A DNA stretch of 64,000 bases, taken from positions 46,810,001 to 46,874,000 of the forward strand of contig OZ024747.1 of assembly GCA_964016885.1 (NCBI GenBank), given 5' to 3'. This DNA comes from Eledone cirrhosa (lineage: Eukaryota). Numbering within the stretch: position 1 is the first letter of the stretch; the number at the start of each line of letters is the position of its first letter. Shown piece by piece: positions 531 through 57,830 of the stretch. The notes under the pieces are model-generated. The model was not told the DNA's origin. It was given only the letters and a program-made list of their open reading frames with translations, and searched no databases. Made by a program: the position numbers and the translations under genes.

Positions 531-660
531 TACCAAAGGAATTGTGGTAAGGAACCAGATGGACCATAACGCACCAGAGTACTCAATACTTAGGGTAGTA
601 GAGTGAGAAATAGCCGTCGAAACGGCTTGAGCTCTCCCGTCGGGGTCATACTTTTTCCTA
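531..660. mobile_element. Family B fold-back element with internal deletion, embedded in (TA)n
   Basis: Same sequence as 4001-4208. The centre is deleted between two GAAATAG micro-homologies. Confidence 0.75.
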
Positions 661-894
661 TATATATATATATATATATATATATATATATATATGTGTG
701 TTTATATCTATATATATACATATATATATATATATATATATATATAAATGAGGGTAGGGATGTGTGTGTATTACTTTATTTGTTTATGACTAATTACACC
801 GTGTCCCACTGTTACCTGCCTTGTAATGCCTCACCTTCCCCCAATGGGACAATAAAAGAATCAGGTCTCCTCCTCCTCCTTCTTCTTCTTCTTC

Positions 895-1222
895 CTTTAC
901 GCTCTGAGTTCAAATCCCGCCGAGGTTAGCTTTGCCTTTCATTCTTATGGGATCGATAAAATAAAGTAGTAGTAATGCACTGAGGACAATTTAATCAATT
1001 TTCCCCTCCCCAAAATTGCTGGCCTTTGCATATAGTAGTAATAATAATTGTTTCTATATTTGGCACAAGGCCAGCAATTACCCAGTACATTACTGGTACT
1101 TAATTTTATCGACCCCGTAAGGATGAAAGGCAAAGTTGACCACGGCGGGATTTGAACTCAGAATGGAAAGGGCCGTAACTCTATGCGTCAAAGCATGACG
1201 TCCGAACCTCTACCGATACTGC
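895..1222. mobile_element. Two tail-to-tail copies of the major tRNA-derived SINE (895-1035 +, 1047-1222 -)
   Basis: GAGTTCAAATCCC B-box-like motif and the GCCTTTCATCCTTACGGGGTCGATAAAAT core are present in both orientations. Confidence 0.85.
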
Positions 1223-4000
1223 CAATAAAAAAAAAGTCTTCTCTTGTCGACGATCAATAATTATTATTATTGATCGTCGACAAGAGAAGACTTTTTTTTT
1301 TTTTTTTTCCGATTCTTCATGAGTTTGTAAATTCGGGTTGTTTCCTTTTGAAATTGTATTTGATTTTTGCTGCAAAGGGTTCATAGGACTTCCGTCTACG
1401 CCCTATGAAAGAGAGACTTTATAATATTTGGGCCTTTTGATCCAAATATTTAAACTTTGCCCGTTTTTTTCTTATATTATGGAAAAAATAGACGAGTCAC
1501 GTCCACAAAATTTCGTGTGCCGTTTTGGGATAGCAACTTAAATGAGCACCATTGTGGACAGAGAAAGATTAGCAATTACAAATGCAACATTCAATAACAA
1601 AATTAGCAACACCACCACCAACAACAACATGAACAATAACAGTGAAATGGAACAAACAGCCACAATGAAACAAATTATGAAAATAACGGCAACAACTCCA
1701 AGAGCAACAATATCATTAAAAACAACAATAACTGCAACAACGAAAACAACAAGAAAAAGAGTGAAAGCAACATCAACAATAATCTAAACAACTTCAACAA
1801 CACCACCACCACCAACAACAACAACAACAACAAAAACAATAAGACCAGCAACAGCATCGGCGTCAGCAACACAGACAAAACAAGAACTCTTTCGCTGCTG
1901 CGGCAGCAACAATGAGGCCATACTTTAGCATGGACCTTACGCAAAAAGAGCAAAAAGTTGGCCCAGCCATGGAAGCTCATTACACAGAGGGGGGGGGGCG
2001 GGCTGGGCCAACTTAACTGTCCCGGCAGAGGCCATAGAAGCGGCGGAGAGGAGAACTGTGGTCTTTAGTTACATCCCAGTAGAGACTAAAAGAGCGACCA
2101 ACACTCACGAGGCAGAAGTCGAAGCTGCACAGAGGTGCATCAGAGATAGTAGAGAAAACATAGCGAGGGACAGACAACACGGCACCATCTCGGTGATGTG
2201 AAACATTCAGTGACCTTTGCAAAAGCAGCAAAGTCATTATGTACCAGTTAGCACAGAGCATTTCGCCCGATATTCTAATAATTTCGCTAATATATTGCAT
2301 TGGCCCTGTGTGTGATTTATCAACGTCGAAAAGATGATTAACACCGTTAGCCTCACCAGGACTTCAACTCATAATACAGAGACTTGGAACTAATATTGCA
2401 AGGCATTTAGTATGATGCTCTAATGAATCTTATATTTAATGAGTTGGAATGACTGATATGAACAAGAGACCACTCGAAATATATTTTACCGACAGTCCAG
2501 TCTTCGCCATGATAATTGTATGTATGAAACTAGAACATTTGATGGAGTGATATACGGCGTGTATGGGCTCTTTAAACCTGGCAGATCCACTCCTTATCCA
2601 GGTCTGAACAGAGCCGATTTCTTCTAAAGAAGGAGAAAAGCGATTTAGAGGAAGTGAGAAAGAGGTAAAAAGGAAAACTTGACTCCAGTATTGGACTTTT
2701 TATATTTTGGATAATATTGGATATTTTATATTGACCTCAAATGGGTAAAAGACAAAGTTGACTTCGGCGGGATTTGAACTCGACGTGGAGAGAGCCGAAA
2801 AGAATATATCGCCTTTCACCACCATAACACCAAACCGATAGGCTACTGCTTCAGTTGCTGCTGCTGCAACTAAAATCAAACAGGCTGCAATAGATTTATC
2901 GTTCGATATGCTCGCTCTGAACTATTCAGGTTTGTGTGAATCCCAGACAACAGACTGACATCACGTGTCTATTGATACAGTATCTAAATATAGCCAGCTT
3001 TACTTTGTGACTGTCTGCTCTTAGTATAGTAGAAAGTTGCTGCGGCACAGACACACGGACACAAATACGCGTGCACACACACCCGCAAGCACACGTACAA
3101 AGGCTGGACATAATGGTGAGGCAAATACAGGCTTACAACACACACACACACACACACGTATGTGTATATATATATATATATATATATATATATATATATA
3201 ATATATATATATATAATATATATATATATATGATACATATATATATGTATATACTATATATATAAACATATATATAAATATATACATAAATATATATATA
3301 TATATATATATATATAGAGAGAGAGAGAGAGAGAGAGATAAATATATAGATGCACACACACTCAGACACACACACACACATATATATATATATATATATA
3401 TATATATACACACACACACACACATATATATATATATATATATATATATATATAATCCAAGCAGGGAAAAGCTAACGCAAAATGATGATAATGATGATAT
3501 ATATATGTGTCTGTATATATGTATATGTATATATATATATATGTATATATATATATATATACACACACACACACACACACACACACACACATATATATAT
3601 ATATACACAACACACACACATATATATATATATATATACACACACACACACATATATATATACACAAACACACACACACACACACACACACACACACACC
3701 ACACACACACACACACACACACACACACACACACACACATATATATATATATATATATATATATATATTGTCCTACCTCCTTGCGCGCTCTGAGTTCCAA
3801 TCCACTGAGTTCAACTTTGCTTTTCATCCTTTCAAAGTCGATAAAAAAGTTCCAGTCCATTCTTCATCTAGAAAGAATCATCTGTGTTCAGTTCTGGAGA
3901 AGGGTGGGCCACACCGGTTTTATATGTGCCCTAGATGTGCCCTATGGTGGTACCCCTAACACTCCACAAGTTATCGGATATTTATCCTTATATATATATA

Positions 4001-4208
4001 TAGGAAAAAGTTTGACCCCGACGACAGAGCTCAAGCTGTTTCGACGGCTATTTCTGGACTAAATTTAGTTCAGAAATAGCCGTCGAAACCACTTGAGCTC
4101 TGCCGTCGGGGTCATACTTTTTTCCTATTTCCCACTCTACTACCCTAAGTATTGAGTACTCTGGTGCGTTATTGGTCCATCTGGTTCCTTACCACAACTC
4201 CTTTGTTA
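4001..4208 (+). mobile_element. Family B fold-back element carrying the 3' half of an HHR
   Basis: Short antisense arm, centre CTGGACTAAA/TTTAGTTCAG, long sense arm ending TTGTTA(TA)n. Confidence 0.8.
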
Positions 4209-56316: not shown

Positions 56317-56358
56317 TATATATATATATATATATATATATATATATATATATATATA

Positions 56359-57230
56359 TAAGAGGCTTAGCTCTGTTTCTCGACCGTTATATCGCGTGAC
56401 TATCTCCCCCTCCGCCTTTTGGGATTCTTTCTCACGTCGTGTAGACGCGTTCTTGAGACTAGTAAAATGAGGTATCCTCTTGATAAGTCGGCAGACCTCG
56501 CAAGGACTCTATATCTTTATGATATATTGTTTTTGTTTATGCCACGAAACTACGTAGTCGAGGAATTTAGGAGCAGTTTAGGTATGATACATTTTATTAC
56601 TAATTATATCTAAATGTTTCTTCTCTCTTCATAATGTATTTTTAACTCTGATACTGGTTCAGTCTAGTTCAACTGAATTGGTCTGTCCCAGTCATTCATT
56701 GAGCAACATCGGTGAAGTTGGCACCCTTAACTCACAGTTGGGTGCGGATGCATTCATGTATATATGTGTGTGTCCGCATGTATCTGTGTGTTTCTAAATA
56801 TATTGTTAATAACTCCCTCTGGTCGAGCAATCTTTGAAGTGTGGGGACAGCTGGAAAGCTTCCATTACTCATACTTCTCGCCTTCTTCACCACCTCTTCT
56901 ACGGCCTCGATATAAATACCCCCTCCGCCTCCGTGGTATTTTCTTCGGGGTTATAAGAGGCTTAGCTCTGTTTCTCGACCGTTATATCGCGTGACTATCT
57001 CCCCCTCCGCCTTTTGGGATTCTTTCTCACGTCGTGTAGACGCGTTCTTGAGACTAGTAAAATGAGGTATTCTCTTGATAAGTCGGCAGACCTCGCAAGG
57101 ACTCTATATCTTTATGATATATTGTTTTTGTTTATGCCACGAAACTACGTAGTCGAGGAATTTAGGAGCAGTTTAGGTATGATACATTTTATTACTAATT
57201 ATATCTAAATGTTTCTTCTCTCTTCATAAT
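56359..57230 (+). mobile_element. Retrozyme-like element: two 277-bp direct repeats 595 nt apart, each with an HHR
   Basis: 56359-56635 matches 56954-57230 (one substitution seen). Non-coding spacer with TATAAATA at 56911. (TA)n flanks. Confidence 0.85.
56475..56564 (+). ncRNA. Type I hammerhead with U3-A8 core; second copy at 57070-57159
   Basis: TCCTC TTGATAA GTcGGCA [46-nt loop] TGCCAC GAAA CTACGTAG TC GAGGA. Confidence 0.8.
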
Positions 57231-57379
57231 ATATATATATATATATTTATTAAAATAACAGATTAAAGTTTTAGCAAAGAATCGCTGCTTTCACCCAATT
57301 TTATTATTATTACTATATATATATATATATATATATATATATATATATATATATATATATATATATATATATATATATA

Positions 57380-57830
57380 TATATTAATAAGAGGAATTCC
57401 AACTTTGTCTGATTTACTCGTTTTATTTACAATCCTTTAAAATATATATAATATGGTATTATAATGAAATAGTATGATAGAATATTAAATTCTAAGTGTT
57501 AATTGAACAAGTACTTTCATGCTTTCGCAATCTTCAGGTTCATGATATGTGGTGACAGTCGAGTTTGCAATTTTCAACAGTTGAAAATTGCAAACTCGAC
57601 TGTCACCACATATCATGAACCTGAAGATTGCGAAAGCATGAAAGTACTTGTTCAATTAACACTTAGAATTTAATATTCTATCATACTATTTCATTATAAT
57701 ACCATATTATATATATTTTAAAGGATTGTAAATAAAACGAGTAAATCAGACAAAGTTGGAATTCCTCTTATTAATATAATCTTCTATACACAATCATACA
57801 CACCCGTGTATATTTACCTATCTATATCTA
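57380..57830 (+). mobile_element. Perfect fold-back element (about 199-bp arms, 1-nt spacer at 57579) plus 3' tail
   Basis: 57380-57578 is mirrored by 57580-57778. Tail runs to (TA)n. Confidence 0.9.
57616..57654 (+). ncRNA. Minimal type I hammerhead; mirror copy at 57504-57542 (-)
   Basis: TGAAC CTGAAGA tTGC gaaa GCAt GAAA GTAC TT GTTCA. GNRA loop II, palindromic AAGTACTT. Confidence 0.88.

Follow-up and report, generated by a model that had tools for sequence, protein, structure and literature searches.

How are asymmetric hairpins set into runs of TA, and is each of them built anew when it integrates? This question is raised by the 64,000-nt window of the Eledone cirrhosa genome (contig OZ024747.1, positions 46,810,001 to 46,874,000) that we analysed, for which an initial annotation had listed at least 18 inserts with a fold-back layout. 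Self-comparison of the repeat-masked window revealed 26 local inverted repeats, compared with 0-1 per run in 20 local shuffles of the window, and fold-backs are spread genome-wide, beyond the window. In line with the annotation, more than 18 window inserts have (TA)n on either side and read as an antisense arm that turns into a sense arm, the latter extended by a tail that has no pairing partner. Four inserts are not fold-backs but inversions with non-overlapping arms: 533-658 (minus strand, family A, of the twin-priming type, with tail only at 533-613 and a tail-less arm at 606-658), 30829-30947 and 48342-48438 (both plus strand and family A-related, the latter with only the last ~22 nt of the tail), and 57247-57313 (plus strand, family G, a 50-nt tail-less arm joined to the last ~17 nt of the tail).

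Family A fold-backs lie at 4003-4206 (plus; flush junction, both arms ending just past the putative start described below), 5908-6090 (minus; tail-less arm longer by 3 nt at the turn), 10069-10262 (minus; tail arm longer by 6 nt, which fits snap-back), 27419-27609 (plus; tail-less arm reaching the putative start, 6 nt past the tail arm), and 50831-51016 (plus). The junction of 10069-10262 is the mirror image of those in L094, L104, and L105. Family B is represented by a fold-back with a hammerhead-like core (10863-11045, minus), a young fold-back with such a core whose tail arm runs from the putative start with an extra G (11091-11297, plus), an old, diverged copy (14004-14172, plus), and an older fold-back (37516-37717, minus). 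One family C insert (4970-5631, plus) comprises a tail-less arm (4970-5186) and a tail arm (5316-5631) with TA-rich filler between them; both arms end at the putative start and each carries a hammerhead-like core. The tail-less arm of the other, a fold-back at 47494-47853 (plus), is ~27 nt longer at the turn. Family G contributes a 5'-truncated Penelope-like element (PLE) of 2.1 kb (16536-18650, plus), a fold-back (8522-8749, minus; tail 8522-8615), a tail with an inverted arm of ~10 nt (10318-10435, plus), and solo tail-less arms at 5661-5731 (minus; from the fixed site Z to the putative start, then an extra G), 46601-46670 (minus; between TA runs), and 62570-62646 (plus). Inverted inserts of families D (4640-4942, with an internal TA run, and 16245-16507), F (8105-8418, 47-nt arms), H (28401-28678), and K (34129-34380) are accompanied by a family L fold-back with its tail at the left and a hammerhead-like core (51337-51732, minus), a partial tandem plus inverted arm of family N with hammerhead-like cores (55483-56314, minus), and a 389-nt near-perfect palindrome of family O (99.7%, 1-nt centre) with a ~55-nt tail and a hammerhead-like core (57385-57828, plus). 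The inserts of families D, F, H, K, L, N, and O are not tied to any ORF.

The inserts are pseudo-LTR (pLTR) ends of Hydra-clade PLEs, not MITEs. The initial annotation had likewise argued for a PLE origin and against MITEs based on terminal inverted repeats (TIRs), and the one-sided unpaired tail, the varying junction, and arms that enter reverse transcriptase (RT) and endonuclease ORFs bear this out; neither fixed TIRs at both ends nor a fixed interior, by which MITEs are recognised, were found. The related locus L231 contains an intact 710-aa ORF with YRDD and a C-terminal VVY..YVG, i.e. an RT fused to a GIY-YIG endonuclease, and window positions 16655-17433 match this ORF with an E value of 2e-43. 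It also has the Hydra-clade features RWK, DKT, a CxCX5C linker, CxxC, and CxH, with CCHH absent. L231 belongs to a fifth, related family; families A and G are known from the endonuclease part only, likewise without CCHH. The window element at 16536-18650 holds the C-terminal part of the RT, a GIY-YIG-like endonuclease, a 3' UTR, and the family G pLTR that closes it, with a frameshift near 17140, and terminates at site Z with the tail absent. The family A pLTR lies downstream of the endonuclease ORF in L019, and families B and C are linked to ORF elements less directly, in that they adjoin antisense ORF pieces (L139, L188). A HMMER search yielded 3216 relatives, and one relative scores above the Pfam GIY-YIG cut-off; Pfam gave no match for the window ORF fragment or the L019 fragment, nor did a word-based protein search among longer proteins. 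Partial tandems, the inverted 5'-truncated copy, and the tail at one end are all present, as in EN+ PLEs. Hammerhead-like CTGANGA..GAAA cores occur in families B, C, L, M, N, and O. Stem II folds in family C (z -5.8) and family B does not fold as a hammerhead; the core pattern was not found in family A or G, and an Rfam search of the pLTRs at four loci matched no hammerhead. Target-site duplications, which are unreadable in (TA)n, were sought in 74 copies, where only simple-repeat matches appeared.

Where do the two arms begin and end? The short arms had been described as usually stopping at an internal TA. Instead, each family has a single fixed site, termed Z, from which the tail-less arm starts in 94/99 cases, despite 12-29 available TA steps. 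Solo tail-less arms ending at Z also exist (17 in 644 kb, one of them 2.1 kb long), and paired arm ends are Z/tail in 43 cases versus one tail/tail and one Z/Z. The TA terminus of the short arm acts like a second site of priming. At the opposite end, 14/39 tail arms and 15/30 tail-less arms of family B, and 6/31 and 10/24, respectively, of family A, end within 1 nt of a putative transcription start, which is the A of TTAGTY in families A and G and has a TATA box, TATAAATA, 30 nt upstream in family B. The non-template base beside it is a G in 7/8 family G arms (five on tail-less arms; p ~5e-4) and in 6/7 family B tail arms (p ~5e-4). The halt of so many arms at a single base, with an additional G, would reflect run-off at a capped RNA 5' end, from which the G would derive. 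Some extra G bases are assignable to the opposite arm, and the neighbouring bases in family A are often C, from a recurrent junction.

We then turned to the junctions, of which 102 two-armed copies from four families were assigned to classes by hand by one reader (taken from 139 tail-selected copies, 37 unscored). In 47/102 copies the tail-less arm outreaches the tail arm on the 5' side by 3 nt or more, the junction is flush without room for a loop in 14, the tail arm is longer and fits simple snap-back in 25, and 16 are ambiguous. An uncurated script gave 30:23:18 of 71 for tail-less arm longer, flush, and the reverse. The excess of the tail-less arm can be large: ~80 nt (L119), 250 nt (L208), 290 nt (L079), and even 1.3 kb into the ORF in L201/L228. 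The overlap between the two arms mostly spans tens to hundreds of bases. The reported differences in turn points between copies were confirmed by this comparison; most junctions are unique and some recur. A given junction can be shared by different haplotypes and found in either mirror orientation, which upholds the claim that they are built anew per integration. Deletion at the palindrome centre after insertion can shift turn points. The age split of the junction classes is crude, since the 0-difference group comprises 7 copies and arm divergence is inflated by loop misalignment, and L231, with 3.3-kb arms that are 99.9% alike, has a tandem on its right side and therefore cannot separate the models. 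The idea that the turn in family A follows an intron acceptor or hammerhead stem II was dropped, as the turns of families B, C, and G lie at other positions with respect to the core.

The two arms of a copy usually come from one template. Their kinship, expected by the initial annotation, is apparent from 64/77 copies with identical arms at five diagnostic sites, versus 19 expected by permutation; within a young subfamily, the arm haplotypes match in 31/38 copies versus 11.6 by chance. Exceptions are discordant haplotypes on the two arms (L094, L069, L089) and cross-family joins (L204, A+G; L170 and L172, G+C); these chimeras could be sequential insertions. Variants mirrored on both arms had been reported as copy-specific at 27418, 10071, 5906, and 47490. 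All four are present, but most are not copy-specific. The 10071 variants AATT/AATT and TAGGACCC are subfamily haplotypes (T at one column in 81/164 arms, C at another in 57/187); the allele at 27418 is shared by 7 panel copies and that at 5906 by 5, each being mirrored at its window insert only. The 47490 variant, present in 0/35 other family C arms, is private in the panel. The word filter skips common words (the family A tail query 27532-27611 matched nothing), so rare variants are enriched in all hit sets; the 'G33' allele therefore serves as a natural test, and the family A tail set does not represent a single young subfamily.

Which route produces such junctions? The initial annotation had proposed that a single cDNA, primed at TA, folds back on itself, serves as its own template, and is reconnected to the target via TA micro-homology; later deletions at the centre would then have blurred the geometry. 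We consider this unlikely as the general route. It does fit 25/102 junctions and the shared arm haplotypes, self-priming has already been suggested for PLE palindromes (Arkhipova et al. 2013, PMC3846280), and snap-back is on record both here (L120, L172) and for R2 (Zhang et al. 2024, PMC11371274). But snap-back requires an inverted arm inside the primed arm with room for a loop, and 61/102 junctions are impossible on these terms unless a deletion followed. Nor does it fit with tail-less arms that attain the putative start with the extra base as often as tail arms do, with the fixed Z and the solo Z arms, or with discordant and cross-family arms. In L120 it is even the tail-less cDNA that folds back: its snap-back runs into the left host flank and then switches to the tail arm. 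Self-priming can occur, but turns probably do not form mainly by snap-back of a single cDNA. Still less probable to us is a two-step history, in which a tail-bearing copy is inserted first, re-cut by the endonuclease, and supplemented with a second, reversed cDNA. Chimeras and nested inserts are present, and the Poseidon enzyme PAc of Anolis cleaves its own ORF-pLTR junction in vitro (Frangieh et al. 2024, PMC11167929). However, haplotype sharing is far beyond chance even in the young subfamily, the orientation is nearly always head-to-head, and the arms are equally aged, with an arm-arm divergence equal to that of the tail (73/2786 vs 74/2614, p=0.68; non-CpG 2.6% vs 2.8% in the tail).

The same match in divergence argues against arm-to-arm conversion, named beforehand as the alternative source of mirrored variants, or template switching after insertion, either of which would create mirrored variants and flipped loops. 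Mirror-image loops occur, as do two private and a few rare mirrored variants; yet a variant carried by 30 tail arms is mirrored in 0/24 copies having the site on both arms. Gene conversion thus went undetected, and we regard this explanation as very improbable. Even less credit is due to inherited hairpins, i.e. MITE-like or palindromic master copies duplicated whole: some junctions recur and the outer ends are fixed, but junctions are mostly unique, those that recur do so across haplotypes and in either orientation, arms extend into the RT/endonuclease ORFs, and the ends are not terminal inverted repeats. Amplified libraries are known to yield fold-back artefacts, and the raw reads examined stem from PCR-based RAD libraries. 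They contained opposite-strand joints from the start region to the tail in two or three other samples; the joints listed, which are not a census, include three of this kind and no palindromic one. Recurrence of the same joints in other samples, together with age-like, one-sided differences of ~3% between the arms, leaves an assembly or amplification artefact with practically no probability.

The pLTR-end inserts are probably made by programmed twin priming, in which both target strands prime at two fixed sites and the cDNA ends are joined. The GIY-YIG endonuclease would cut both (TA)n strands, as has in vitro precedent in another PLE. One 3'-OH would prime a cDNA at the distal fixed site, the end of the tail, and the other at the proximal fixed site Z, ~70-95 nt upstream. 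Both primers would usually copy the same RNA or source and rarely different ones, as haplotypes and chimeras show. cDNAs primed in the 5' pLTR would run off at the presumably capped 5' end, and those primed in the downstream pLTR would continue into the ORF; two overlapping cDNAs on one RNA would require a putative strand displacement. The two cDNA 3' ends would then be joined via micro-homology, blunt joining, or short templated filler, although either cDNA may snap back before it pairs with its counterpart, for which there is one clear record. Gap repair would finally leave a tail-less antisense arm, a variable turn, and a tail-bearing sense arm between two runs of (TA)n. The sequence signatures of twin priming are present: non-overlapping arms, longer tail-less arms, and chimeras. 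Further support comes from the fixed Z, the solo Z arms, the arm ends piled up at the putative start with their extra G, and the opposite-strand joints in raw reads from three other samples. Against it stand the 25/102 copies that fit simple snap-back and the 16/102 that are ambiguous. In a wider sense, EN+ PLE integration may be a symmetric two-primer reaction by design, for which we see an even chance: one RNP would cut both (TA)n strands and copy one capped RNA twice, starting at the two fixed sites, with the second copy displacing the first and strong-stop-like pLTR cDNAs, run off at the cap, joined head-to-head. The palindromic junction of PLEs in general, along with their inverted 5' copy and one-sided tail, would then have a common origin, and this genome would contain ~10^5 such products.

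The novelty lies in the proposed mechanism; the elements belong to a known clade and are ordinary within it. The junction census separates the published self-priming idea from the two-primer route, pinpoints the exact sites, and offers a testable answer to how PLEs build their inverted ends. PLE RTs form the sister group of telomerase; they are also candidate tools for gene insertion. In addition, such abundant hairpins risk mis-annotation as MITEs or miRNA precursors.

The layout itself is known from PLEs, with an inverted 5'-truncated copy, the tail on one arm, and (TA)n targets (Craig et al. 2021, PMC8557442), and has been ascribed to 'still undefined features' of their cycle. The Hydra clade of C-terminal EN+ PLEs described there, recorded in Mollusca, shares with our elements a single ORF with RWK, DKT, CxCX5C, no CCHH, and CxxC plus CxH near the end, as well as (TA)n targets, hammerhead-like cores, the inverted 5'-truncated copy, and the one-sided tail. 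In contrast, the tails here, at ~70-95 nt, exceed the 30-40 nt given for PLEs, the intact unit seen measures ~4 kb versus 'generally <3 kb', and pLTR-only products are very abundant. PAc belongs to another clade. It cleaves and extends both target strands (PMC11167929), has AT-rich targets, and starts RT at two internal sites, which lie downstream of the hammerhead and delimit the tail, as proposed here; the steps after priming are termed unvalidated. Unlike here, where each arm nearly always keeps its own site, PAc showed no strand preference for the start site in vitro, and the available text does not tie the two sites to the inverted arm. R2 snap-back (PMC11371274) and PLE self-priming (PMC3846280) share the head-to-head palindromic junction and a cDNA 3' end that can self-prime, as in L120, but snap-back of the tail-primed cDNA alone fits only a quarter of our copies (25/102), and the two-primer reading requires no antisense template. 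L1 twin priming (PMC11702581) is alike in that a further cDNA is primed on the RNA by the other target end, an extra G comes from the cap, and the two cDNAs are joined, in L1 by NHEJ or MMEJ. Whereas the second site is variable in L1 and the arms overlap by 1-10 bp, it is fixed here, the event is the rule, and arm overlap usually extends as far as the RNA 5' end.

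The window (G000:C7:46810001-46874000 in the 3.0-Gb assembly; GC 35%) is rich in (TA)n and, after masking of simple repeats, contains 26 local inverted repeats, compared to 0-1 per shuffle in 20 shuffles. More than 18 of these are TA-flanked inserts in which an antisense arm leads through a turn into a longer sense arm, which confirms the layout described in the initial annotation. Family A is represented by eight inserts, B by four and C by two, families D to O by single copies, and family G by three two-part inserts, three solo arms and a 2.1-kb element. Fifty-eight 10-kb stretches from elsewhere in the genome show the same layout. 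In 644 kb, 43 pairs combine a tail-less (inverted antisense) arm with a tail arm, the sense arm ending in an unpaired segment; one pair is tail/tail, one tail-less/tail-less, and two have an internal end. Solo arms amount to 17 tail-less and 29 tail arms, a few of which are pairs divided by the 60-base rule. The density of family A in this non-random sample (∼64 per Mb) extrapolates, as a rough guess, to fold-back inserts on the order of 10^5 genome-wide. Rare symmetric products occur at L034:4141-4711, L002:2138-2428, and L080:7199-7334, with the tail on both arms or on neither; in two cases it is on both, once with unlike haplotypes and foreign filler. Additional inverted structures lie at window 28870-29513, 30226-30458, and 51763-52392, two of them with hammerhead-like cores.

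Other repeats are also present in the window. Two 273-base direct repeats, 99.6% alike, surround 322 bases at 56361-57228 and are (TA)n-flanked; we propose a small LTR-like or tandem pLTR element. A 231-codon frame at 59132-59827 (minus strand) resembles the C-terminal region of a LINE RT and matches Pfam DUF6451. Copies of an abundant SINE-like repeat, presumably a cephalopod SINE and pointing to a probable octopus-like host, lie at 894-1171, 9300-9700, 15255-15460, 52930-53350, and 62712-62930, some as inverted pairs. The TA-flanked dispersed family E (167-254, 6189-6277, 12919-13005) shows no fold-back in these copies.

The inserts derive from Penelope-like elements (PLEs) of a known clade. 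Family G forms the 3' end of a truncated element (16536-18650), and at locus L019 family A follows an endonuclease ORF 48% identical to that of the window; relatives carry RT motifs upstream. Among 84 scored matches, many intact ORFs of ∼714 codons were found, several as head-to-head pairs, which suggests that the clade is active. The ORF of element L231 has the RWK, DKT, YRDD, CxCX5C, CxxC, and CxH motifs and lacks CCHH. Such features, together with insertion into (TA)n, are ascribed to the Hydra clade (PMC8557442). In L231, the 3' UTR is followed by a hammerhead-like core, site Z, ∼190 nt, and the ATG, and the tail therefore represents the start of the 5' leader. This very young insertion (L231-L233, G000:C1:330095250-330103400) has 3283-base arms that are 99.9% alike, a tail-less arm of ∼3.9 kb with an intact 710-aa ORF, and a partial tandem next to it.

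The outer end of the tail-less arm is fixed. Among the matches listed, it begins at one site per family, Z, in 94 of 99 copies with a visible end, despite 12-29 TA steps between start and end. This corrects the earlier statement that short arms usually stop at an internal TA, since the site is not just any such TA. Z-ended arms also occur alone (up to 2.1 kb), as do family G tail-only pieces ending at Z (6/39 tail-selected copies among the matches listed; 8/10 solos in an unselected sample). The latter are expected if distal RT runs into a second primer at Z, but TA micro-homology could instead account for them. Immediately beyond the truncated PLE, on its Z side, lies ∼1.9 kb of degenerate (TA)n (window 18651-20562), which includes a family L fragment (19342-19396).

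At the turn, arms pile up within 1 nt of a putative transcription start base in family B (14/39 tail, 15/30 tail-less) and family A (6/31 and 10/24), with just 2/39 and 3/21 in family G. This base lies 30 nt downstream of a TATA box in family B and is the A of TTAGTY in A and G, a motif resembling the Drosophila initiator; in other samples, read depth climbs sharply right after this base. Where the next base departs from the genomic one, it is G in 7/8 family G arms and 6/7 family B tail arms, as would result from cap copying, although part of these bases can be read as micro-homology. Four young family B copies show a loopless join via self-complementary AGCT at the start base. At family B loci L122, L123, L129, L156, and L157, the arm's first base, which adjoins the extra G, is frequently T rather than A, at times on one arm only; we propose a second source or a misread modified cap-adjacent base. 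The filler between two family C arms (window 5187-5315) is a short TA-rich tandem reusing arm-end sequence, resembling repeated re-priming during end joining.

The initial annotation explained these inserts by a single cDNA that snaps back and primes itself, and self-priming has been put forward for PLE structure (PMC3846280, Discussion). For a tail-primed cDNA, this predicts an inverted arm that lies within the tail arm and leaves space for a loop. Copies were collected by tail-only queries, which keep the turn unbiased, using the best 40 matches per query. The DNA search ignores common words, and match sets (L001-L030) are therefore richer in the query's rare variants, an enrichment usable as a test and misleading for sampling subfamilies. 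Among the matches listed, 139 copies were analysed (A 31, B 39, C 30, G 39; two from the window), and 102 had a scorable second arm; the 37 omitted comprise 31 without a second arm in the fetched DNA, four ambiguous G copies, and two cross-family joins. The tail arm was longer in 25/102 of these matches, as snap-back predicts, but the tail-less arm extended beyond it on the 5' side by ≥3 nt in 47/102 (four reclassified after antisense ORF sequence was seen beside the tail arm), 14/102 were flush (loop <3 nt), and 16/102 near-flush with filler. With classes assigned by hand, 47 vs. 25 gives p=0.013; an uncurated script assigned 30 of 71 copies to the longer-tail-less class, 23 to the flush class, and 18 to the longer-tail class. 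By a crude split, 22/38 copies with arms <4% apart fall into the longer-tail-less or flush class.

Snap-back does occur. At locus L120, the tail-less arm reaches the start base plus a C, turns, and is copied back past Z and (TA)n; 28 bases of host sequence from the left flank follow in inverted orientation before the record switches to the tail arm. Here it was the tail-less cDNA that snapped back, and this cDNA must have been continuous with the target; the tail would stem from a second cDNA. Opposite-strand joints between start region and tail also occur in raw RAD reads from three further samples (1442/1505 in all three, 1429/1501 and 1446/1505 in two each), so the non-overlapping insert type exists outside this assembly; these libraries were amplified, and the read-joint listing is without palindromic joints.

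The initial annotation noted variants mirrored on both arms. Family A arms are identical at five diagnostic sites in 64/77 copies (19 expected by permutation), and in 31/38 copies of a young subfamily (11.6 expected); another 11/77 show a single-site difference, in line with ageing. Arm-to-arm conversion, the alternative already named, was not detected in family A, with a recurrent allele mirrored in 0/24 copies and non-CpG divergence of 2.6% in arms vs. 2.8% in tails. Mirrored variants are therefore mostly source variants copied twice. A shared source is not universal, however: L094, L069, and the short-overlap L089 join different haplotypes, L204 a family A tail-less to a family G tail arm, and L170 and L172 family G to family C.

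The interpretation in the initial annotation is partly supported. The sequence data establish the PLE identity, the fixed second end, the junction geometry, the shared templates and the lack of detected conversion; as the probable mechanism we favor twin priming, in which both target strands prime their own cDNA. The target would be cut on both strands, cDNAs would be primed at the tail end and at Z, RT may run off at the RNA cap, and overlapping cDNAs would undergo strand displacement before a joining pathway links them. No description of such a fixed-site, overlapping variant was found in the literature searched, which includes the accessible parts of PMC11371274, PMC11702581, PMC13282606, and 10.64898/2026.07.22.740005. 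An inverted 5'-truncated copy with a one-sided tail is the general PLE layout already published (PMC8557442, PMC3846280). For PAc, the Poseidon PLE of Anolis, PMC11167929 reports that both strands are cut and extended, and its two tail-bounding start sites match the fixed Z and the tail end found here.
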